From: a virus
Taxonomy: Duplodnaviria > Heunggongvirae > Uroviricota > Caudoviricetes
Virus record (IMG/VR): IMGVR_UViG_2706794682_000018
Length of the DNA: 16,334 nucleotides
Strand: one strand, 5' to 3'
Part shown: in pieces, positions 843 through 14,782 of the stretch
Layout of the letters: every line of letters begins with the position of its first letter
How positions within the stretch are numbered: position 1 is the first letter of the stretch
Notes under the pieces: generated by a model
Seen by the model: the letters and a program-made list of their open reading frames with translations, nothing else
Databases searched by the model: none
Told to the model about the DNA's origin: nothing
Made by a program: the position numbers and the translations under genes

Positions 843-1901
843 TTATGCTTTCCACTTCAGAACACCCGAATTTCTCGCGTGCATTAAAAAACGAATCAGC
901 AACAACAGCTGACTGCCGTGTTTCTCTTCAAAATCTTTTACTCCGGCATGTAGTTCGTTACGGCATTTACGGCATAACGGAATAACAAACAAATCATCAG
1001 CCTTTGTTCCCATCCCTCCCAGTCCATGACCAATGATGTGATGCGGATCATCTGCCTGATTGCCACACGTCATGCATTTCTGCGTTTTTACCCAGCGCGT
1101 GTATACAGGCATCTCTTCCCGTTGTGATTTCTGGCGCTGGAGATACTGAGCCGGTGACTCCGGATCAACGGCAATGCTGACCACCGTCTTTTCCTGTGGT
1201 GGGTTCTGTTGCTGGTGGACGTGAGGCAGTAACGCAATATTTTTTGTGCGCTGCTTCAGTATGCTGGTGGCTGTCTGCTCTCCCGGTATGATGTCGCTTT
1301 CACTGTACACAGAGCGAATTTTTTCCGCACGCAACCCCAGCGAACGACGTAATACCGCTTCCGGTAGCGCGTCCGCCACCTGATTGCGGACCGCCCACCA
1401 GGATAATTCAGCCAGAGATAATTCACGCTCCTGCGTACCGCTTATTGCGTGACCGATGACGTCAATCATCCATGCTGACAGGTTTTGATGAGCAAGTTGC
1501 TCGAGTGATTCGGATGTCTGGTCACGCAGCTGGTTGTCGCAGTGCCAGCACAACACCATTGCGCCGGTACCATAACGGTGAATGACGGTTTCGCTGTGAT
1601 GATAATCGCCGTGTGGCCACTGGCAGGATTTAATATGGCGCAACAGCCAGTCAGACAATGCACCAGCACCACCAGCAGCACGAATCACCCGTGCGTTACT
1701 GAAAAACGGCAGCAATGTTTTGTCTTCCACCAGCGGCTGGCGAGCGGCAGGAACGACCCCGGACGGCAGATTACGCATGCTTTTTGGTTCCGGCTCCACC
1801 AGTATTCTGCCGTTATGGAATGCTGACATTGATTCACGGCCTGGCTTAACGATAACCAGACCGAGTTCCGGTACCAGAACAGGTCGAAGTAATACCCGCA
1901 C
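843..1901 (-). CDS. DUF968-family prophage protein (YdfU-like) with C-terminal Cys/His motif
   Basis: 352-codon ORF whose stop abuts the rusA ATG (TAAATG). The longest ORF starts at GTG 1901-1899 with GGAGGT upstream; in-frame ATGs further in are alternatives. C-terminal C..C...HH...CRKCRNELH looks like an HNH-like zinc motif. Size and position next to Q resemble YdfU of Qin-type prophages (from memory). Confidence 0.7.
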   Translation of the reverse strand: MRVLLRPVLVPELGLVIVKPGRESMSAFHNGRILVEPEPKSMRNLPSGVVPAARQPLVEDKTLLPFFSNARVIRAAGGAGALSDWLLRHIKSCQWPHGDYHHSETVIHRYGTGAMVLCWHCDNQLRDQTSESLEQLAHQNLSAWMIDVIGHAISGTQERELSLAELSWWAVRNQVADALPEAVLRRSLGLRAEKIRSVYSESDIIPGEQTATSILKQRTKNIALLPHVHQQQNPPQEKTVVSIAVDPESPAQYLQRQKSQREEMPVYTRWVKTQKCMTCGNQADDPHHIIGHGLGGMGTKADDLFVIPLCRKCRNELHAGVKDFEEKHGSQLLLLIRFLMHARNSGVLKWKA

Positions 1902-1976
1902 ATTACCTCCAGATCCGTTGCTGGAATGTGCGGGACGGACGCGTTGGCCGTTCGGAGTAAGGGAGCCTGACGGAGA

Positions 1977-2258
1977 TTATCCAGTGACGGTAGTCGAGGC
2001 TAAGGGCTTTTTTAACCTCGCATCCGCGCCTGCGGTAACACTGAATGAGCCATTCGGCCTGTTCTTCAGTGCATGGGGGATGCTGGTACCAATCAGATTT
2101 AAATGCGTGAGAGCGCCGCCCGTGCCTGCTGGCAAAGACGGCTGAATTATCAGAATTGTGTAGTCTGGAAGGCAGTGGCTGACAATAGCGCCATTCTCAA
2201 CGCGCACAGTATAGAGGCCATCTTCACTAAAAATTTCACGTAATTCTTCGATTTTCAT
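1977..2258 (-). CDS. Small ORF, copy 1 (MKIEELREIFSEDGLYTVRVENGAIVSHC...); only the first ~29 codons are shared with copy 2; occupies the position of rem in Qin-type prophages
   Basis: ATG at 2258-2256 preceded by GGAAGGA 8 nt upstream. The first 29 codons are shared with the ORF at 3497, with 4 synonymous and 2 conservative changes. The C-terminal 64 aa is unique and low-complexity, so true length is uncertain. Confidence 0.35.
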   Translation of the reverse strand: MKIEELREIFSEDGLYTVRVENGAIVSHCLPDYTILIIQPSLPAGTGGALTHLNLIGTSIPHALKNRPNGSFSVTAGADARLKKPLASTTVTG

Positions 2259-2379
2259 CAACAGAATCCTTCCAGATAAATAGCACTCCCCTGTTCGGGG
2301 TCCATCCCTCTTCTCCCTGCGCGCTACTTAAGTATTTTTGATTCTATTCCGGCACCATCTAAAACTTCAAACGCGTTGA

Positions 2380-2410
2380 AAATAAAAACAAAAACCCGCC
2401 GAAGCGGGTT
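2380..2410 (-). terminator. Intrinsic terminator downstream of hok copy 1
   Basis: On the minus strand, stem CCCGC, loop TTCG, stem GCGGG (plus 2395-2408), followed by TTTTTGTTTTTATTTT. It lies about 70 nt after the hok stop. Confidence 0.6.
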
Positions 2411-2478
2411 AAGTGTGGGTGCATTGAGGATGCCTGCCCCATCAGAGGTGGCGAGGGATTTCTCCCCCGCCTGGTCTC

Positions 2479-2634
2479 TTACTCCTCAGGTTCGTAAGCT
2501 GTGAAGACAGCGACCTCCGTCTGGCCGGTTCGAATTCGTACCTCGCAGAGGTCTTTCCTCGTTACCAGTGCCGTCACTATGACGGTTAAACAGATGACGA
2601 TCAGGGCGATTAACATCGCCTTTTGCTGCTTCAT
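2479..2634 (-). CDS. hokD: Hok/Gef-family type I toxin, 51 aa (HokD/RelF-like membrane peptide)
   Basis: MKQQKAMLIALIVICLTVIVTALVTRKDLCEVRIRTGQTEVAVFTAYEPEE, which I recognise as the Hok family (hydrophobic helix plus conserved Cys). ATG at 2634-2632 with AAGGAG 9 nt upstream. The 70-aa ORF in the track is an in-frame upstream extension. Confidence 0.85.
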   Translation of the reverse strand: MKQQKAMLIALIVICLTVIVTALVTRKDLCEVRIRTGQTEVAVFTAYEPEE

Positions 2635-2693
2635 AGCCTGCTTCTCCTTGCCTTTCGGCATGTAAGAGGCTAACCTACATGTGCAAAGCATGA

Positions 2694-2783
2694 AATTGGC
2701 CTCAGATTAATGTTAAGCGTCTTGCCGGACGCGTAATGTTAACTGGGGCTTTTCTCTATCTGCCTTTTGGTGTTCATGCCTGA
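2694..2783. repeat. Inverted repeat arm A (90 bp, perfect), inside the hok copy 1 leader region
   Basis: Exact reverse complement of 2916-3005, verified base by base at both ends and at internal checkpoints. Pairing breaks at 2693/3006 and 2784/2915. Confidence 0.9.
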
Positions 2784-2915
2784 GACAGATAGCCTCAAGC
2801 ACCCGCTGCAATTCTACTTAACTCTCCTTTTCCCGCAAACCGTTTTTATCCCCAGCGGCAAATCGAATACACCACCAGCGCCACCGCCATCGCAATTCCT
2901 ACCGTTGTTAATGCT

Positions 2916-3005
2916 TCAGGCATGAACACCAAAAGGCAGATAGAGAAAAGCCCCAGTTAACATTACGCGTCCGGCAAGACGCTTAACATTAATCTGAGGC
3001 CAATT
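2916..3005. repeat. Inverted repeat arm B (90 bp, perfect), 132 bp from arm A
   Basis: Exact reverse complement of 2694-2783. It overlaps the last 17 nt of the minus-strand 60-aa ORF 2989-3171. Confidence 0.9.
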
Positions 3006-3171
3006 GCAGGAGTTTGAAAAAACGCTTGTGGAATGCGTAGTTACACACACGCTTAAAGTCTGCGTGTATCCACTCACCTATTTTGATTTGATGCAGAAAA
3101 TCGCAACTCTCCGGCGTCGCCGGGAGAAGTAATCCGGAAGAGGTTTGTTTGACCAGTTGTATATGTGCCAT
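2989..3171 (-). CDS. Hypothetical 60-aa ORF (MAHIQLVKQTSSGLLLPATPESCDFLHQIKIGEWIHADFKRVCNYAFHKRFFKLLQLASD)
   Basis: ATG at 3171-3169 with GGAGAAAG upstream. No family recognised. Its 3' end runs into inverted-repeat arm B. Confidence 0.2.
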   Translation of the reverse strand: MAHIQLVKQTSSGLLLPATPESCDFLHQIKIGEWIHADFKRVCNYAFHKRFFKLLQLASD

Positions 3172-3209
3172 CGGCTTTCTCCGGTGGCACGGTGTTACAC
3201 AGCAGGAGT

Positions 3210-3497
3210 TCAATCCTGCTCAAGATTGTAGATGAGTTTATTCTTCAGCAAAAGCAGAAAACCAGCCTTAAAACCAATCTCTTTCAAAACCCGTAATGAT
3301 GTGACAAATTCGTCCTCACGCAAAATAAAACCGTCCGTCAGAAGTCCATTACAAAAATAAAATAACACAGCACCGCTCTTCCTTTGTTGAGATTGCAAAC
3401 ATCTAATGCGGCAATGGCTGACAATCGCTCCATTCTCAACGCGCACAGCATAGAGGCCATTTTCACTAAAAATTTCACGCAATTCTTCGATTTTCAT
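3210..3497 (-). CDS. Small ORF, copy 2 (MKIEELREIFSENGLYAVRVENGAIVSHC...); shares only its first ~29 codons with copy 1
   Basis: ATG at 3497-3495 with the same GGAAGGA site as copy 1. The 162-bp block 3411-3572 is about 94 percent identical to 2172-2333. The C-terminal tail is unrelated to copy 1. Confidence 0.3.
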   Translation of the reverse strand: MKIEELREIFSENGLYAVRVENGAIVSHCRIRCLQSQQRKSGAVLFYFCNGLLTDGFILREDEFVTSLRVLKEIGFKAGFLLLLKNKLIYNLEQD

Positions 3498-3619
3498 CTT
3501 CAGAATCCTTCCAGATAAATAGCTCTCCCCTGTTCGGGGTCCATCCCTCTTCTCCCTGCGCGCTACTTAAGTGAGTCGATTCTATCTGCGAAGGTGCGCG
3601 AATCAAATTCACCGGAAAT

Positions 3620-3670
3620 AAACAACAAAAAACCCGCCGAAACGCTGAGAGATCACAGCGATGGGCGGGT
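3620..3670 (-). terminator. Intrinsic terminator of hok copy 2 (two-tier hairpin plus T-run)
   Basis: Outer stem CCCGCC/GGCGGG (3633-3638 / 3664-3669) with inner stem CGCTG/CAGCG, followed on the minus strand by TTTTTTGTTGTTTATTT. Homologous to the copy 1 terminator with an insertion in the loop. Confidence 0.5.
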
Positions 3671-3746
3671 TAAGTGCGGGTGCGTTGAGGATGCCTGACA
3701 CATCAGAGGTGGGCGGGGATGGGATCAGCTCCCCGCCCGGTCACTC

Positions 3747-4060
3747 TTACTTCCTGGNNNNNNNNNNNNNNNNNNNNNNNNNNNNNNNNNNNNNNNNNNN
3801 NNNNNNNNNNNNNNNNNNNNNNNNNNNNNNNNNNNNNNNNNNNNNNNNNNNNNNNNNNNNNNNNNNNNNNNNNNNNNNNNNNNNNNNNNNNNNNNNNNNN
3901 NNNNNNNNNNNNNNNNNNNNNNNNNNNNNNNNNNNNNNNNNNNNNNNNNNNNNNNNNNNNNNNNNNNNNNNNNNNNNNNNNNNNNNNNNNNNNNNNNNNN
4001 NNNNNNNNNNNNNNNNNNNNNNNNTGAAGCAGATAGCCTCAAGCACCCGCAGTCATTCTA
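3747..4060 (-). other. Second hok-family locus (paralogue of copy 1) whose coding region and leader are hidden by the N run 3758-4024
   Basis: 3661-3757 is homologous to the copy 1 hok 3' region 2410-2490. A stop TAA sits at 3749-3747 with ..RK just upstream. After the N run, 4025-4057 is homologous to copy 1 at 2780-2815 (CAGATAGCCTCAAGCACCCGC). Confidence 0.5.
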
Positions 4061-4105
4061 CTTACCTCGCCAATATGAAATCAATCAGAAAGGTGCCCCA
4101 TAAAA

Positions 4106-4792
4106 TCACTCCTTCTCTTCTTTACCGTAGTGGAGTTGACCAATTTTGATAAGAGGGCGTCCCTGAGATTTGCGGTGTAGATTGGTATCGCGCAGAGAAT
4201 ACACACAGCCACAATATTCCTGCTGATAGAATTTTTCGCGCTTGCTGATTTCAATCATACGGGACGAGCCGCCCTGCTTGCGCCAGTTATAATCCCAGTA
4301 CACCATGCCCGGATAATGCGCGACGGCTCGCCGCCCACAGTCGTTAACCTGCTGCATATTTTTCCAGCGTGAAATGCCCAGTGAACTGCTGATCACACTG
4401 AAACCATTTTCAGCGGCGTACAGCGCTGTCCGCTCAAAACGCATGTCAAAACACATGGTGCAACGGATCCCTCGTTCGGGCTCCCATTCCATTCCTTTGG
4501 CTCGTTCAAACCAGTTGTCTGTGTCGTAATCAGCATCAATAAACGGCACGCCGTGTTGTTCAGCAAAGCGAATATTCTCATCCTTACGAATTAAATACTC
4601 TTTCTGAGGATGAATGTTCGGGTTGTAGAAAAAGATGGTGTAGTCGATTCCCGAGGCCTGAAGCGCCTCCATCACCTCACCGGAACATGGAGCACAGCAA
4701 GAGTGCAGTAGTAGTTTGTTTGCCCCGTTTGGGAGCTCCAATTTGGGCCGTTTGAAATCAGCAACTGTCATAAATATGTTTATTGGGGTCAT
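4106..4792 (-). CDS. DUF208 / QueH-like (epoxyqueuosine reductase family) Cys-rich protein, 228 aa
   Basis: Clean 228-codon ORF. N-terminal [11 protein letters not shown] and FFYNPNIHP motifs, plus further Cys pairs (RCTMC, EYCGC), match my recollection of the DUF208/QueH family. The assignment is from memory, not a search. Confidence 0.5.
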
Positions 4793-4939
4793 AAAAATAT
4801 CAAAGAGTGTAGCATTAGAACGGGGCTATCGGAAACAGATGTGTGACTGCTCCCCGCCCTTTCGGGTGGTCTCCTGATGATTTGAGGGTGCAGAAATCCC
4901 TCCGGTTAAGGATTAAATTTTTAACAGTGCTAAATTTAA

Positions 4940-5296
4940 TTATTCAGTTCTGGATTTTGTCGCCCTGCGTATCCGCGCTTTCGCGTTACGCTCAATCTGT
5001 ATCAGCTTTTCTATATTTCTCCGCCTTTCCTGTTCCTCCTGGCGCAATAGCCTTACATCATCTGCCAGTCTGGTTTCTCTTTTTGCCACAGAGAGCATCC
5101 AGTCAAACGGCTCCACAACCGCACCGCAGATTTTACAGCGGACCTGACGCTCTTTTTCGTCAACCCGTACAGAGGCGTGATGGCAATATGGTCTTTCCGA
5201 TGGCTCATAAAGAAAATTAACCTGATTACGAGGGTCATCCTCTTTTACCGGAAATAAAACGATATTGCTTAACTCATCTTCTGGTTTTATTTCCAT
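4940..5296 (-). CDS. Hypothetical protein, 118 aa, Cys/His motif (CHH...CKIC) and basic coiled-coil-like C-terminus
   Basis: ATG at 5296-5294 preceded by AGGAGAGGAG. The track ORF extends upstream to 5353 but the internal ATG has the strong ribosome-binding site. No family recognised. Confidence 0.6.
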   Translation of the reverse strand: MEIKPEDELSNIVLFPVKEDDPRNQVNFLYEPSERPYCHHASVRVDEKERQVRCKICGAVVEPFDWMLSVAKRETRLADDVRLLRQEEQERRRNIEKLIQIERNAKARIRRATKSRTE

Positions 5297-5353
5297 GCTC
5301 CTCTCCTTTGATGCGAATGCCAGCGGTAATTGAAGCCTGATAGCTAATTTCAT

Positions 5354-5776
5354 TCACAGTATCGCCTCCTGAAAATTACCCTGATAGAAAGCCAGTACAC
5401 GCTGCATAGCTTCGCTCTTCCGGCACTCGCGACAGATTATATTCAGGCGCCTGTCGTAGCGGCGTATTTCTCCGTCAGGTAATGACCAGATAAGGTCCGG
5501 ATCAACAACAACCGGTTTCCTCACCTTTACTCTCGAGAGTTTTTTGCGGGCGCTTTGCCAGTCCTTGCGAGCCTGTTCAGACGGGAATAAGCCGTAGCCA
5601 GAATTATATACATCACCACTTGCGACCAGTTCTATGCATAAGCGACCGACAGACGCACGACTGATACCTGTTTCATCTGACAACTGCCGAATCGTGACCC
5701 GACCGTCCTGATGCACGAGTTCCACAATTCGCGTCTTCAGTTCTTCCCGCTGTTCGGGAGTAAAAGGTTTCGCCAT
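5354..5776 (-). CDS. Hypothetical DNA-binding protein, 140 aa, helix-turn-helix-like (TIRQLSDETGISRASVGRL)
   Basis: ATG at 5776-5774 with AGGAGG upstream. Lies immediately downstream of the DnaC-like gene on the same strand. Confidence 0.7.
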   Translation of the reverse strand: MAKPFTPEQREELKTRIVELVHQDGRVTIRQLSDETGISRASVGRLCIELVASGDVYNSGYGLFPSEQARKDWQSARKKLSRVKVRKPVVVDPDLIWSLPDGEIRRYDRRLNIICRECRKSEAMQRVLAFYQGNFQEAIL

Positions 5777-5790
5777 AAATCCTCCTGAAA

Positions 5791-6537
5791 CTACTTAACA
5801 ACCCTCGAATGGCTAACATTCGGACGCCAGCTCTCCCAGTTAAAATTCACCCAGCGCCCGCCGTTCATGACCATGCGATCCATCACCCGCTCGCCGAGCA
5901 ATGTTTTCATCACCTCATAGTTCAGGTTTGTCAGCATCCCCACGCTGCGCATCGACGCTGTCCGGCGATCAACAATCTGGTGCAGCACCACCTGCTCGTT
6001 TTTCGTCTCGCGCTGAATGCCAATTTCATCAAGAACCAGCAGATCCACTTCGCACAGCTCCCGCAAAAATTTTTCGCCTGACTGCCCGTCGTCATAGCTG
6101 GCGTGCAGGGCGCTCATAACATCAGCCACGGTAACCACAATCACTGTCTGACCGTCTTTCAGCAGGCGATTCCCGATAGCTGCCGCTAAGTGGTTCTTCC
6201 CGGTACCAGGTTTTCCGCTGAACGCAAAATTTGTACACCCGGTCATCAGTTCATCAGCGATGGATTTCGCCTGACTCAACGCGTATCGCTGCGCTTCGTT
6301 CTGCACCTGGTAATTCGAAAACGAGCATTTGCGGTGCAATGGCTGGATGCCAGAGCGATTCAGAATTTTTTCCACCCGCAACTGACGATTCTGACGGTTG
6401 ATCTCCTCACAACGTTTCTGGCCTTCGGAAAGTTGCCACTCGCGCCACTCCGCTACCGTCTTGAATGGCGCGGTTACATGTGACGGGGCCAGTCTGCGGA
6501 TACGTTCAAGAACGTCGCCTGTCGCAATATTTTTCAT
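5791..6537 (-). CDS. ydaV: DnaC-like replication protein / helicase loader (lambda P analogue)
   Basis: 248 aa with Walker A GKPGTGKNHLAAAIG and Walker B LLVLDEIG. AGGGGG site upstream; start 6 bp after the ydaU stop. Confidence 0.9.
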   Translation of the reverse strand: MKNIATGDVLERIRRLAPSHVTAPFKTVAEWREWQLSEGQKRCEEINRQNRQLRVEKILNRSGIQPLHRKCSFSNYQVQNEAQRYALSQAKSIADELMTGCTNFAFSGKPGTGKNHLAAAIGNRLLKDGQTVIVVTVADVMSALHASYDDGQSGEKFLRELCEVDLLVLDEIGIQRETKNEQVVLHQIVDRRTASMRSVGMLTNLNYEVMKTLLGERVMDRMVMNGGRWVNFNWESWRPNVSHSRVVK

Positions 6538-10103: not shown

Positions 10104-10153
10104 ATGATTGCACATCACTTCGGAACTGATGAAATACCACGTCAGTGTGTGAC
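10104..10153 (+). CDS. kilR: KilR-like (FtsZ inhibitor) N-terminal fragment; remainder in N run
   Basis: ATG at 10104 with GGAGA 5 nt upstream; MIAHHFGTDEIPRQCV. Position between sieB and racC. A 73-aa product would end at 10325, inside the N run. Confidence 0.45.
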
Positions 10154-10403
10154 NNNNNNNNNNNNNNNNNNNNNNNNNNNNNNNNNNNNNNNNNNNNNNN
10201 NNNNNNNNNNNNNNNNNNNNNNNNNNNNNNNNNNNNNNNNNNNNNNNNNNNNNNNNNNNNNNNNNNNNNNNNNNNNNNNNNNNNNNNNNNNNNNNNNNNN
10301 NNNNNNNNNNNNNNNNNNNNNNNNNNNNNNNNNNNNNNNNNNNNNNNNNNNNNNNNNNNNNNNNNNNNNNNNNNNNNNNNNNNNNNNNNNNNNNNNNNNN
10401 NNN

Positions 10404-10948: not shown

Positions 10949-13549
10949 ATGAGCACAAAACCACTCTTCCTGTTACGGAAAGCGAAAAAATCATCCGGTG
11001 AACCTGACGTCGTCCTGTGGGCAAGCAACGATTTTGAATCGACCTGTGCCACTCTGGACTACCTGATCGTTAAGTCAGGTAAAAAACTGAGCAGCTATTT
11101 TAAAGCTGTTGCCACGAATTTTCCTGTCGTTAATGACCTGCCCGCTGAAGGTGAGATCGATTTTACCTGGAGTGAACGCTATCAACTCAGCAAAGACTCC
11201 ATGACATGGGAACTAAAACCGGGAGCAGCACCAGACAACGCTCACTATCAAGGCAATACCAACGTCAACGGCGAAGACATGACTGAGATTGAGGAGAATA
11301 TGCTACTCCCAATTTCTGGCCAGGAACTGCCCATTCGTTGGCTTGCTCAACACGGCAGCGAAAAACCGGTAACGCACGTTTCACGCGACGGACTCCAGGC
11401 ATTACACATTGCTCGGGCTGAAGAACTACCGGCTGTTACTGCCCTGGCTGTTTCCCACAAAACCAGCCTGCTCGACCCGCTGGAAATTCGCGAACTCCAC
11501 AAACTGGTTCGTGACACTGACAAAGTTTTCCCTAATCCTGGTAATTCAAACCTGGGACTGATAACTGCTTTTTTCGAAGCATACCTGAACGCTGACTACA
11601 CCGATCGAGGACTGCTGACAAAAGAGTGGATGAAGGGTAATCGTGTTTCACACATCACTCGCACGGCTTCCGGTGCTAATGCTGGCGGCGGAAACCTCAC
11701 CGATCGCGGCGAAGGTTTCGTACACGATCTGACGTCACTGGCGCGGGACGTAGCCACTGGCGTACTGGCCCGTTCAATGGATCTGGACATCTATAACCTT
11801 CATCCGGCACACGCTAAACGCATTGAGGAAATTATCGCTGAAAATAAACCGCCCTTTTCTGTTTTCCGCGACAAATTCATCACCATGCCTGGCGGGCTGG
11901 ATTATTCCCGCGCCATCGTGGTTGCGTCCGTAAAAGAAGCACCAATTGGGATCGAGGTCATCCCCGCGCACGTCACTGAATATCTGAACAAAGTACTGAC
12001 TGAAACCGATCATGCCAACCCTGATCCGGAAATCGTGGATATTGCCTGCGGTCGCTCCTCTGCCCCGATGCCGCAGCGAGTAACAGAAGAAGGAAAACAG
12101 GATGATGAAGAAAAACCGCAACCATCTGGAACAACGGCAGTTGAACAGGGAGAGGCTGAAACAATGGAACCGGACGCAACTGAACATCATCAGGACACGC
12201 AGCCGCTGGATGCTCAGTCACAGGTAAATTCTGTTGATGCGAAATATCAGGAACTGCGGGCAGAACTCCATGAAGCCCGGAAAAACATTCCATCAAAAAA
12301 TCCTGTCGATGCCGATAAATTGCTTGCTGCATCACGTGGTGAATTTGTTGACGGAATTAGCGACCCGAACGATCCGAAATGGGTAAAGGGGATCCAGACT
12401 CGCGATTGTGTGTACCAGAACCAGCCAGAAACGGAAAAAACCAGCCCGGATATGAATCAACCTGAGCCAGTAGTGCAACAGGAACCGGAAATAGCCTGCA
12501 ATGCCTGCGGCCAGACTGGCGGGGATAACTGCCCTGACTGTGGTGCGGTGATGGGCGACGCAACATACCAGGAAACATTCGATGAAGAGAGTCAGGTTGA
12601 AGCTAAGGAAAATGATCCGGAGGAAATGGAAGGCGCTGAACATCCGCACAATGAGAATGCTGGCAGCGATCCGCATCGCGATTGCAGTGATGAAACTGGC
12701 GAAGTCGCAGATCCCGTAATCGTAGAAGACATAGAGCCAGGTATTTATTACGGAATTTCGAATGAGAATTACCACGCGGGTCCCGGTGTCAGTAAGTCTC
12801 AGCTCGATGACATTGCTGATACTCCGGCACTGTATTTGTGGCGTAAAAATGCCCCCGTGGACACCACAAAGACAAAAACGCTCGATTTAGGAACCGCTTT
12901 CCACTGCCGGGTACTTGAGCCGGAAGAATTCAGTAACCGCTTTATCGTAGCACCTGAATTTAACCGCCGGACAAACTCCGGAAAAGAAGAAGAGAAAGCG
13001 TTTCTGAGGGAATGCGCAAGCACAGGAAAAACGGTTATCACTGCCGAAGAAGGCCGGAAAATTGAACTCATGTATCAGAGCGTTATGGCTTTGCCGCTGG
13101 GGCAATGGCTTGTTGAAAGCGCCGGACACGCTGAATCATCAATTTACTGGGAAGATCCTGAAACAGCAATTTTGTGTCGGTGCCGTCCGGACAAAATTAT
13201 CCCTGAATTTCACTGGATCATGGACGTGAAAACTACGGCGGATATTCAACGATTCAAAACCGCTTATTACGACTACCGCTATCACGTTCAGGATGCATTC
13301 TACAGTGACGGTTATGAAGCACAGTTTGGAGTGCAGCCAACTTTCGTTTTTCTGGTTGCCAGCACAACTATTGAATGCGGACGTTATCCGGTTGAAATTT
13401 TCATGATGGGCGAAGAAGCAAAACTGGCAGGTCAGCTGGAATATCACCGCAATCTGCGAACCCTGGCTGACTGCCTCAATACCGATGAATGGCCAGCTAT
13501 TAAGACGTTATCACTGCCCCGCTGGGCTAAGGAATATGCAAATGACTAA
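10949..13549 (+). CDS. recE: Exodeoxyribonuclease VIII (RecE), 866 aa
   Basis: 866-codon ORF with an acidic, low-complexity middle region and a C-terminal nuclease domain. Its stop overlaps the recT start (ATGACTAA). Confidence 0.95.
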
Positions 13550-14351
13550 GCAACCACCAATCGCAAAAGCCGATCTGCAAAAAACTCAGGGAAACCGTGC
13601 ACCAGCAGCAATTAAAAATAACGACGTGATTAGTTTTATTAACCAGCCATCAATGAAAGAGCAACTGGCAGCAGCTCTTCCACGCCATATGACGGCTGAA
13701 CGTATGATCCGTATCGCCACCACAGAAATTCGTAAAGTTCCGGCGTTAGGAAACTGTGACACTATGAGTTTTGTCAGTGCAATCGTACAGTGTTCACAGC
13801 TCGGACTTGAGCCCGGTAGCGCCCTCGGTCATGCATATTTACTGCCTTTTGGTAATAAAAACGAAAAGAGCGGTAAAAAAAACGTTCAGCTAATCATTGG
13901 CTATCGCGGCATGATTGATCTGGCTCGCCGTTCAGGTCAAATCGCCAGCCTGTCAGCCCGTGTTGTCCGTGAAGGTGACGAGTTTAATTTCGAATTTGGC
14001 CTTGATGAAAAGTTAATACACCGCCCAGGAGAAAACGAAGATGCCCCTGTTACCCACGTCTATGCTGTCGCAAGACTGAAAGACGGAGGTACTCAGTTTG
14101 AAGTTATGACGCGCAAACAGATTGAGCTGGTGCGCAGCCAGAGTAAAGCTGGTAATAACGGGCCGTGGGTAACTCACTGGGAAGAAATGGCAAAGAAAAC
14201 GGCTATTCGTCGCCTGTTCAAATATCTGCCCGTATCAATTGAGATCCAGCGTGCAGTATCAATGGATGAAAAGGAACCACTGACAATCGATCCTGCAGAT
14301 TCCTCTGTATTAACCGGGGAATACAGTGTAATCGATAATTCAGAGGAATAA
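13542..14351 (+). CDS. recT: Single-strand annealing recombinase RecT, 269 aa
   Basis: ATG at 13542 ([16 protein letters not shown]...), overlapping the recE stop. Sequence recognised as RecT. Confidence 0.95.
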
Positions 14352-14593: not shown

Positions 14594-14782
14594 ATGTATA
14601 AAATTACCGCCACTATTGAAAAGGAAGGTGGCACTCCTACTAACTGGACAAGATATTCAAAATCTAAACTAACGAAATCAGAATGCGAAAAAATGCTCTC
14701 AGGTAAAAAAGAAGCAGGCGTTTCCAGAGAGCAGAAAGTAAAACTGATAAATTTTAATTGCGAGAAACTTCAGTCCTCGTGA
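14594..14782 (+). CDS. ydaC: YdaC-like small protein, 62 aa
   Basis: ATG at 14594 preceded by GGAGGTG (MYKITATIEKEGG...). Upstream in-frame ATGs at 14582 and 14522 are alternatives. Confidence 0.65.
   Translation: MYKITATIEKEGGTPTNWTRYSKSKLTKSECEKMLSGKKEAGVSREQKVKLINFNCEKLQSS

Follow-up and report, generated by a model that had tools for sequence, protein, structure and literature searches.

A predicted cobalamin-independent epoxyqueuosine reductase among mosaic cassettes in the ren/nin segment of a Rac-type Escherichia coli prophage

In phage lambda, ren lies directly after the replication gene P in the rightward early operon, and the role of its product, Ren, has been defined genetically only. 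The accessory genes known as morons classically carry a promoter and a terminator of their own. Enzymes of the QueH family, which need no cobalamin, reduce epoxyqueuosine (oQ) to queuosine (Q) at position 34 of tRNA-Asp, -Asn, -His and -Tyr, and E. coli has no de novo synthesis of vitamin B12. For lambda Ren, a likely involvement in replication and an interaction with the Rex proteins have been described (bioRxiv 10.1101/2021.04.19.439022). The conversion of oQ to Q in E. coli is B12-dependent according to Frey et al. (1988), as cited in PMC5372724. Two non-orthologous enzymes serve this one step, the cobalamin-dependent QueG and the iron-dependent QueH, and both coexist in Staphylococcus aureus, where they are treated as its own tRNA-modification set (PMC13443448). 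Other genes of the queuosine pathway are phage-borne: the 7-deazaguanine (preQ0/G+) genes of phages encode the early-pathway enzymes FolE, QueC, QueD and QueE, which act on DNA via DpdA (PMC6884629).

The DNA analysed here, referred to as the window, is a stretch of 16,334 nucleotides from IMG/VR record IMGVR_UViG_2706794682_000018. Its host element is a Rac-type lambdoid prophage of E. coli, with a DnaC-like loader in place of lambda P, and the segment under study is the ren/nin part of the rightward early operon, the position to which an earlier interpretation made from the letters alone (the sequence-only reading) had assigned it. The three co-oriented ORFs of that reading were found again at the same coordinates, all on the minus strand, and by profile matches each scored as a genuine gene and not a chance ORF (Table 1). 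Their placement between the replication genes and a hok module was likewise borne out. On the upstream side, the ydaV-like ATPase matched Pfam IstB_IS21 (1.4e-20) and Bac_DnaA (1.3e-8), and the gene for the DnaC-like ATPase is annotated as ydaV in two comparison loci, L001 and L088. On the downstream side, hokD lies directly 3' of QueH in L001, a locus 99.8% identical; the corresponding hok stretch of the window is N-masked (3760–4025). Strong Shine–Dalgarno sequences were present at two genes only, GGAGGA at the 140-aa gene, 3 nt 5' of an ATG that lies 14 nt past the ydaV stop, and AAGGAGAGGAG just upstream of the 118-aa start. No Shine–Dalgarno sequence was found before either candidate start of QueH, and the strong ribosome-binding sites once attributed to all three genes therefore hold for the first two. 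An Rfam scan of the window returned sok and RalA only, both outside the trio.

Table 1. Features of the ren/nin segment and its borders, in window coordinates
Feature	Position	Strand	Evidence
DnaC/YdaV-like replication ATPase, last replication gene upstream of the trio	5791–6537	minus	Pfam
Ren-family protein (DUF977/PHROG142), 140 aa	5354–5776	minus	Pfam and PHROG profiles, AF2 model
Zinc-ribbon and long basic helix protein (PHROG1621), 118 aa	4940–5296	minus	PHROG profile, homologue alignment
Non-coding tail of the 118-aa cassette	4854–4939	minus	blastn module mapping
Conserved 5' leader of the QueH cassette	4772–4842	minus	cassette boundary, upstream alignment
QueH, predicted cobalamin-independent epoxyqueuosine reductase, 221 aa	4106–4771	minus	Pfam QueH, orthologue alignment
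Promoter-like site TTGATT-18-TAGAAT	4055–4084	minus	consensus promoter scan

For the 140-aa protein, a full-length match to Pfam DUF977 was obtained (1.1e-33, 116.5 bits; cut-off 22.1), together with a match over residues 1–139 to PHROG142, the “Ren-like exclusion protein” family (2.7e-44). Lambda Ren (NP_040633, 96 aa) also matches PHROG142 (1.6e-41) and lies below the reach of the Pfam DUF977 model. Direct comparison of the two proteins by BLASTP aligned only the C-terminal 20 residues (12/20 identities, E 3e-7), and MAFFT gave 27% identity overall, the window protein differing from the shorter lambda protein by a 45-residue insert after the helix-turn-helix (HTH). Both have an N-terminal winged HTH and a common C-terminal motif, N-[IL]-[IV]-x-[RK]-ECR-x-S-x-x-M-x-RVL-x-x-Y, represented in the 140-aa protein by NIICRECRKSEAMQRVLAFY. 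In the AF2 model, block-mean pLDDT was 91–95 at residues 11–70, and confidence was low over the C-terminal third; Foldseek with this model retrieved only generic winged-helix regulators of the IclR, MarR and GntR types, at E 4e-3 or worse. The HTH noted by the sequence-only reading was thus substantiated by profiles and by AF2/Foldseek. Its further statement that neither the first nor the second protein could be recognised no longer applies to the 140-aa protein, which shares a PHROG and a C-terminal motif with lambda Ren, and still applies to the 118-aa protein. Homology to ren or nin proteins, which that reading had set against a block of unknown function, was found in part, in that the 140-aa protein falls in the PHROG of lambda Ren; no named Nin match was obtained for any of the trio.

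The ren-type position, right after the replication genes, is occupied in L001, L002, L003, L005, L006 and L088, as it is by ren after P in lambda. Taken with the common profile and the 20-residue motif, on which the homology rests, we regard the 140-aa protein as a probable member of the Ren family. By analogy with lambda Ren, it would be a replication-associated early protein enabling escape from Rex-type exclusion. No Rex system that could be its target was evident in the window, and a full-text literature search on DUF977 function returned only its assignment to the winged-helix fold.

The 118-aa protein matched PHROG1621 (5e-56) and no Pfam family, and its PHROGs are annotated as function unknown. 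NCBIfam families gave no match for this protein, for QueH or for lambda Ren. A CxH...CxxC zinc ribbon is followed by a 55-residue basic helix, and the AF2 model consists of two beta-hairpins and then a helix at residues 63–117. In an alignment of 28 homologues, C38, H40, C54 and C57 show little or no variation, and the same holds for the helix segment IEKLIQIERNAKARIRR, in agreement with the earlier description of a Cys/His protein with a basic coiled-coil tail. The mechanically called ORF extends to an in-frame ATG at 5353 (137 aa), which abuts the stop of the Ren-like gene; the 118-aa start was favoured because M1 aligns across the family in the same 28 homologues. The gene is conserved between alleles, with dN/dS of 0.03–0.11, and the family is large, with 1,653 representative clusters. 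It is present in 31% of complete E. coli genomes (1,679/5,426), a single genome holding as many as 5 copies, and is located always in early operons of lambdoid prophages; Stx phages have it in their ea22 region, and other Enterobacterales prophages have it in distal nin.

Structural comparison of the 118-aa protein returned little. A profile search of the PDB gave a best E of 2.3, and Foldseek with the AF2 model against PDB and BFVD gave no match below E 0.1. The best Foldseek match, at E 0.22, was the N-terminal ribbon of TFIIB (1PFT), and the TFIIB-type zinc ribbon profile PF08271 scored 21 bits, under its 29-bit cut-off; the resemblance to TFIIB is one of ribbon shape only. The protein is likely to be a non-enzymatic early protein, and its predicted shape suggests that it dimerises through the helix. 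From that shape it may bind a conserved nucleic-acid or protein partner and act as a regulator or host-takeover factor. As a weaker, additional reading, the proteins of the zinc-ribbon/helix family might be early host-takeover factors of a new class.

The identification of the third gene as QueH-like was confirmed. Its product matched Pfam PF02677 at 1.9e-65 (220.6 bits; cut-off 23.5) over profile positions 1–174 of 175, and residues 27–203 matched residues 4–178 of the chain in the Thermotoga maritima QueH structure 7LC5 (5.3e-22). Translation could begin at a first ATG at 4792, giving 228 aa (4106–4792), or at a second at 4771, giving 221 aa; the second was favoured because the orthologue alignment and the RefSeq annotation agree on it, the identical gene being called QueH in RefSeq. 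The cysteine motifs CCAPC, CxxC and CxC are intact. Residues C32, C33, C36, C111, C114, C194 and C196, which we take to be metal-binding ligands, are invariant in comparison with nine chromosomal orthologues and align to the T. maritima motifs; C36 corresponds to Asp13 of T. maritima, and all ten gammaproteobacterial orthologues in the alignment likewise have cysteine there. Identity to chromosomal QueH of ten bacteria, mostly Enterobacterales (Erwinia, Photorhabdus, Providencia, Ewingella and others), was 78–86%, and every column invariant among the orthologues is retained in the prophage protein. A functional QueH would thus seem to have been acquired from the chromosome of a gammaproteobacterial relative, with an Enterobacterales species as the most likely donor.

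Selection on QueH in prophages is strongly purifying. Of 19 prophage alleles, the most divergent differ from the window allele by 20–22 synonymous and 2–5 non-synonymous substitutions, corresponding to dN/dS of 0.02–0.05, and none of 83 full-length copies was disrupted. The chromosome of the species has QueG instead of QueH: queG was found in all 5,426 complete E. coli genomes, and QueH in the prophage is therefore a second, non-orthologous enzyme for the same step. The same count rules out that QueH replaces a lost QueG. The arrangement resembles that of S. aureus in pairing a cobalamin-dependent with an iron-dependent enzyme, and differs from it in that QueH is here strain-variable prophage cargo, carried by 18% of genomes (995/5,426). 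Phage HannyBb is among the phages with QueH.

The borders of the QueH cassette were examined for signals of its own. Its left edge falls at 4842 in every arrangement compared, an edge common to L002, L003 and L006, and the leader is conserved in an alignment of upstream regions. Within the leader a conserved TGcTACACT was picked out by eye as a candidate weak extended -10, unsupported by the scan. The consensus scan found no minus-strand promoter at 4793–4939, and no terminator was found after QueH, including the interval between the QueH stop and the promoter-like site. That site begins 22 bp past the QueH stop, and the same hexamers occur again at 3606–3579; it may be the promoter of the adjoining hok/mok transcript, and it forms the right-hand border of the QueH cassette. 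QueH thus differs from the classic moron, as neither a sigma-70 promoter nor a terminator of its own was found.

On the other side of the edge lies the tail of the 118-aa cassette, a stretch that travels with the cassette and contains an imperfect hairpin, CCACCC-GAAA-GGGCGG. By blastn, window positions 4854–5636 matched L005, and 4854–4947 also matched L004 (4001–4089), where it stands beside a different gene. Phage ArgO145 has a related copy of the tail at a second site, and the tail therefore behaves as a mosaic junction sequence. The intergenic RNA fold at the junction of the 118-aa gene and QueH was not significant (z = -0.89).

Co-occurrence was counted in 5,426 complete E. coli genomes, the trio being scored at a query coverage of at least 80%. 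The contiguous trio was present in two of them, and some part of it matched in 3,966. The three genes are three independently assorting cassettes, ordinary mosaic cargo and not one unit, because they are contiguous in so few genomes while separate parts are found in 995 to 3,966; the “block” of the sequence-only reading does not survive as a unit. Its description of the region as a variable one for cargo was upheld, since in the nearest Rac prophages, at 97% overall identity, this slot holds other genes and at least four further arrangements fill it elsewhere. Sharp cassette edges are reused at 4842, 4854 and 5354. In 75 IMG/VR loci a Ren-like gene and QueH were both present; the two were directly adjacent in 62 (gap of ~200 bp) and separated by the 118-aa gene in 11, which suggests that the 118-aa gene is an insertion into the commoner Ren–QueH arrangement. 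In location, early-operon orientation and mosaic cassettes with sharp reused junctions, the segment is like the lambda nin genes and lambdoid morons.

These counts bear directly on the proposal that the trio is one accessory system, for example of defence or counter-defence, in which the HTH protein regulates, the zinc ribbon senses and QueH is the effector. The genes adjoin one another with little space between them, run in one direction and lie in a segment known to hold cargo, and the Ren-like stop abuts the in-frame ATG of the following ORF; yet each is widespread in the absence of the other two, and the co-occurrence counts reject a single operon unit and largely refute the system built on it. 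A defence system was also rejected for want of significant PADLOC matches: in PADLOC-DB the 118-aa protein and QueH were without match, and the matches of the 140-aa protein were all generic HTH ones below threshold (E 0.002–0.007), so that the defence-type cargo once suggested for this region found no backing. The close identity of QueH to chromosomal housekeeping orthologues further argues against a new effector role, and we give the one-system proposal very little probability. A narrower alternative would make the 140-aa protein a mere transcriptional regulator of the downstream cargo, functionally unrelated to Ren. Its winged HTH is generic and weakly matches the IclR, MarR and AsnC families, and its gene does stand before variable cargo, but the gene keeps its place after the replication genes whatever follows (QueH, the 118-aa gene, a methyltransferase fragment or small ORFs), and its PHROG and C-terminal motif are those of lambda Ren. 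We consider a regulator of this kind quite improbable.

For QueH itself, two other explanations were weighed. The gene might be a silent passenger, acquired by illegitimate recombination and kept only by the adjoining hok addiction module, with no effect on host or phage. This would suit a gene that lies immediately 5' of hok in most loci, has neither a Shine–Dalgarno sequence nor a predicted promoter or terminator of its own, and enters a host already equipped with QueG. It sits poorly with the low dN/dS, the intact reading frames, the retention of all residues invariant among chromosomal orthologues and the spread to nearly a fifth of complete E. coli genomes, and we judge it unlikely, while allowing it some weight. 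Alternatively, QueH might serve 7-deazaguanine modification of phage DNA, as protection from restriction, and not tRNA. To our knowledge, epoxyqueuosine is not a DNA base. The DNA pathway requires DpdA/Tgt and preQ0 synthesis genes, and none is annotated in L001 (25.8 kb) or in L088 (a 17-kb Rac locus) or was found among the window ORFs scanned; whereas the known phage genes belong to the early pathway, the window QueH is a solitary gene for the final step, which is specific to tRNA. Modification of phage DNA by Q-pathway enzymes is known, but QueA, QueG and QueH were not found in the DNA-modifying viruses analysed by Hutinet et al. (2019, PMC6884629), and the probability of this explanation seems to us next to nil.

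The locus is, in our view, probably best explained as the ren/nin segment of a Rac-type prophage, filled by a Ren-family cassette, a 118-aa cassette and a captured QueH cassette. One false lead is thereby removed: the “block” is lambdoid mosaicism of the ordinary sort, and of the genes called “unknown” one is probably a Ren homologue. The 118-aa family, in turn, is a large and well-conserved group of early phage proteins without a Pfam model and would be cheap to characterise. What is mildly new is a common, prophage-borne, B12-independent epoxyqueuosine reductase, as predicted from the family; prophage-borne QueH was not found discussed in a full-text literature search.

With such an enzyme, a lysogen or an induced cell could complete the Q modification under B12 scarcity. 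We know of no established physiological difference between oQ- and Q-tRNA, and any benefit of prophage QueH is for that reason conjectural. It is possible, and we suggest it tentatively, that lambdoid prophages are vectors of a tRNA-epitranscriptome trait, with QueH giving about one in five E. coli strains cobalamin-independent completion of queuosine. If this is true, tRNA wobble chemistry (oQ to Q) would be altered whenever B12 runs short, as a so far undescribed kind of lysogenic conversion, and QueH would be the first enzyme of Q-specific tRNA modification demonstrated in a phage. The physiological importance of the oQ-to-Q step, and its cofactor regime, is a question that dates from the 1988 report of B12 dependence; prophages with QueH in 18% of genomes, all of which have the B12-dependent QueG, would offer a genetically simple natural test of it.

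The window is a Rac-type lambdoid prophage carrying intR, xis, RalR/RalA, recT, recE, a repressor/cro pair and ydaT-, ydaU- and ydaV-like genes, with hok modules, DUF968 and RusA after these. Its closest E. coli matches were Rac prophages adjoining ttcA, with 97% identity over 76% of the window. Because the rightward early operon lies on the minus strand, the trio at 4106–5776, which encodes a 140-aa Ren-like protein, a 118-aa zinc-ribbon protein and QueH, falls just downstream of ydaV.

Features of the window and of related loci
Feature	Position	Strand	Remark
ydaV (DnaC-like)	5791–6537	minus	directly upstream of trio
Gene 1, 140 aa	5354–5776	minus	Pfam DUF977 1e-33; several winged-HTH families
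Gene 2, 118 aa		minus	next ORF after gene 1; PHROG1621 5e-56
Gene 3, QueH		minus	third ORF; Pfam QueH 2e-65, 220 bits
Candidate QueH starts	4792; 4771	minus
Ren-like gene cassette	from 5354	minus	pairwise blastn
118-aa cassette	4854 to ~5324 or 5353	minus	pairwise blastn
QueH cassette	4025/4100–4842	minus	pairwise blastn
Tail of 118-aa cassette	4854–4947		94 bp
Same tail, phage ArgO145 (L004)	4001–4089; 5316–5400
TGA/ATG junction	5351–5356
RecE; RecT	10949–13549; 13485–14351	plus
RalA sRNA	14600–14778	minus
N runs	10150–10400; 3760–4025
hok modules	2479–2804; 3640–4084		second N-masked at 3760–4025
sok	2629–2804		Rfam match
PHROG340 ORFs	3210–3497; 1977–2261		one after each hok module
tRNA cluster	L001 9182–9492; L003 605–914		QueH-bearing relatives

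RecE of the window, accompanied by RecT, is intact and full-length (866 aa), whereas the FDAARGOS_944 prophage, otherwise block-identical, has a truncated one, so that the left arm is better preserved in the window prophage. RalA, the antitoxin of the RalR type I toxin–antitoxin pair and expected in a Rac prophage, gave a full-length Rfam match (225 bits). The masked stretches correspond to the toxin genes kilR and hokD, as seen by comparison with two Rac relatives (L088 and L001). The two hok modules are in tandem; in the first the Hok ORF is intact (Pfam HOK_GEF 2.7e-23), and the second, largely under the mask, has hokD as its counterpart in the 99.8%-identical locus L001. As the promoter-like hexamers TTGATT/TAGAAT upstream are the same for both and each is followed by a PHROG340 ORF, the entire hok–PHROG340 unit appears duplicated.

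Window positions 4026–5800 were compared by megablast with 5,426 complete E. coli genomes. A part of this segment occurred in 3,966 genomes and its full length in just two of them, those of strains FDAARGOS_943 and FDAARGOS_944 (99.8%). QueH alone was present in 995 genomes (at least 95% identity, almost always as a single copy), and the 118-aa gene alone in 1,679, in up to five copies and mostly adjoining ead/Ea22-like genes. Pairwise blastn against other loci gave sharp cassette edges that are reused between loci. Elsewhere the slot held, for example, the Ren-like gene and then QueH directly; the Ren-like gene, a methyltransferase fragment and QueH (also in phage HannyBb); or the Ren-like gene, the 118-aa gene and small ORFs without QueH. 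The Ren-like gene and QueH were directly adjacent in 62 of the 75 IMG/VR loci having both, whereas the 118-aa gene stood between them in 11, which makes the window a minority variant of a common Ren–QueH–hok backbone. The sequence-only reading, which had treated the genes as one block of possibly defence-type cargo, was not borne out on either count: both the co-occurrence counts and a PADLOC search, which returned no significant matches, contradict the idea of a defence or counter-defence triad. The trio region is an ordinary mosaic ren/nin segment, comprising a Ren-family member, a member of a large unnamed phage family and a bona fide QueH as prophage cargo.

The tail of the 118-aa cassette has a second copy elsewhere in the Stx2a phage ArgO145, by a different, ead/Ea22-like gene, and other prophages have, at the corresponding junction ahead of QueH, a different strong hairpin, GTCTGCTTT-GCATCA-AAAGCAGAC. 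Such short hairpin-bearing junction sequences may be recombination or RNA-processing marks between cassettes.

All three ORFs are real genes and, as originally described, co-oriented. The strong ribosome-binding sites ascribed to them hold for two of the three: GGAGGA precedes the 140-aa gene and AAGGAGAGGAG the 118-aa start, and neither candidate QueH start has a Shine–Dalgarno sequence. Homologue alignments fix the predicted starts of the 118-aa protein, whose M1 is invariant in 28 relatives, and of QueH, for which the second ATG is where chromosomal orthologues begin to align, giving 221 aa in agreement with RefSeq. The stop TGA of the Ren-like gene directly abuts an ATG in frame with the next ORF, which would give a 137-aa form. 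Database entries in which the 118-aa protein is fused to the N terminus of DUF977, Ead/Ea22 or DUF1133 (P0040, P0002 and P0015) suggest chimeric annotations created by frameshifts or junction recombination.

Neither of the first two proteins had been recognized initially. For the 140-aa protein this changed with PHROG142 ("Ren-like exclusion protein"), which matched it at 2.7e-44 and authentic lambda Ren at 1.6e-41; like lambda ren, the gene sits right after the replication genes. The two proteins have an N-terminal HTH in common, with a 45-residue insert in their MAFFT alignment, and BLASTP aligned only a C-terminal motif, NIICRECRKSEAMQRVLAFY against NLVFKECRQSAAMKRVLAVY (12/20 identities, E 3e-7). 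In the AF2 model the winged helix was confident (block-mean pLDDT 91–95 at residues 11–70) and the C terminus weaker; Foldseek with this model returned only IclR/MarR/GntR-type domains. Toothman and Herskowitz reportedly found in 1980 that Rex excludes ren mutants. A preprint describes Ren as "likely involved in DNA replication" and the Rex proteins as interacting with O and Ren in two-hybrid assays (bioRxiv 10.1101/2021.04.19.439022). Since lambda Ren, unlike the 140-aa protein, falls short of a Pfam DUF977 match, we place the protein in the Ren family on the strength of the profile, as a candidate rather than an established functional equivalent.

The 118-aa protein matched only PHROGs without assigned function. 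C38, H40, C54 and C57 are invariant in homologues from Escherichia, Salmonella, Klebsiella, Serratia, Erwinia and Yersinia, which also have a near-invariant segment, LR-EE--RR-NIEKLIQIERNAKARIRR. In its AF2 model (pLDDT 74) two short hairpins precede one helix, which spans residues 63–117. No sequence relatives were found in the PDB, nor any Foldseek match below E 0.1 in the PDB and BFVD, the best being a TFIIB ribbon. An exhaustive profile search gave 1,653 representative clusters; 43 distant members had no Pfam match beyond a sub-threshold zinc ribbon and all fell in PHROGs 1621, 4865 and 8538, annotated without function. In Stx2a phages such as ArgO145 the gene belongs to the leftward operon, where it lies in the ea22 region. 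Its place in prophages of Serratia, Klebsiella and Yersinia is the distal nin region, behind NinG/RusA/YbcO/NinH and one to two genes ahead of the Q antiterminator, and in most of these loci its start overlaps the stop of the preceding gene. Alleles have dN/dS of 0.03–0.11. We infer a non-enzymatic early protein, probably dimeric, whose invariant basic helix would contact a conserved nucleic-acid or protein partner.

QueH of the window retains the CCAPC, CxxC and CxC motifs and aligned with T. maritima QueH (7LC5, 5e-22). Chromosomal QueH proteins of Erwinia, Photorhabdus, Providencia, Ewingella and others are 78–86% identical to it, and every invariant column of their alignment is kept, so that the prophage gene is a housekeeping orthologue captured recently. 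The window allele differed from the most divergent of 19 prophage alleles by 20–22 synonymous and 2–5 non-synonymous changes (dN/dS 0.02–0.05), and no disrupted copy was seen among 83 full-length ones; this purifying selection makes it unlikely that QueH is a silent passenger. Action in DNA modification would require DpdA and preQ0 genes, which are not annotated in the related loci L001 and L088. A consensus scan found neither promoter nor terminator for QueH, the sole candidate promoter element being a conserved TGcTACACT noted by eye in the cassette leader, and the intergenic region had no significant RNA structure. Upstream of the lysis genes, QueH-bearing relatives carry a cluster of four tRNAs (Ile, Arg or Lys, Thr, Gly); none is Q-modified (Asp, Asn, His, Tyr), hence there is no obvious cooperation with QueH.

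Hutinet et al. 2019 found no QueA, QueG or QueH homologues in the viruses that they analysed (PMC6884629). Among 50,697 phage records, a near-identical QueH was present only in Escherichia phage HannyBb, annotated as hypothetical, the other matches being metagenomic fragments or oversized records that possibly include host DNA; the PHROG counterpart, PHROG3217, is annotated without function. No discussion of prophage-borne QueH was found among the papers covered by full-text searches, an absence that is not proof of novelty, and in RefSeq about a thousand genomes already have the gene annotated as QueH.

E. coli does not synthesize B12 de novo. As all 5,426 E. coli genomes carry queG, the prophage QueH adds a second enzyme, not orthologous to the first, for one and the same step, conversion of epoxyqueuosine (oQ) to queuosine (Q). 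S. aureus likewise has both QueG (cobalamin-dependent) and QueH (iron-dependent) (PMC13443448), and in both E. coli and Salmonella the oQ-to-Q step depends on B12 according to Frey et al. 1988, as cited in PMC5372724. From these observations we infer that the prophage QueH would supply a B12-independent route to Q. The boldest of the surviving readings is that the prophage would bring about lysogenic conversion of the tRNA queuosine state of its host when B12 is limiting.
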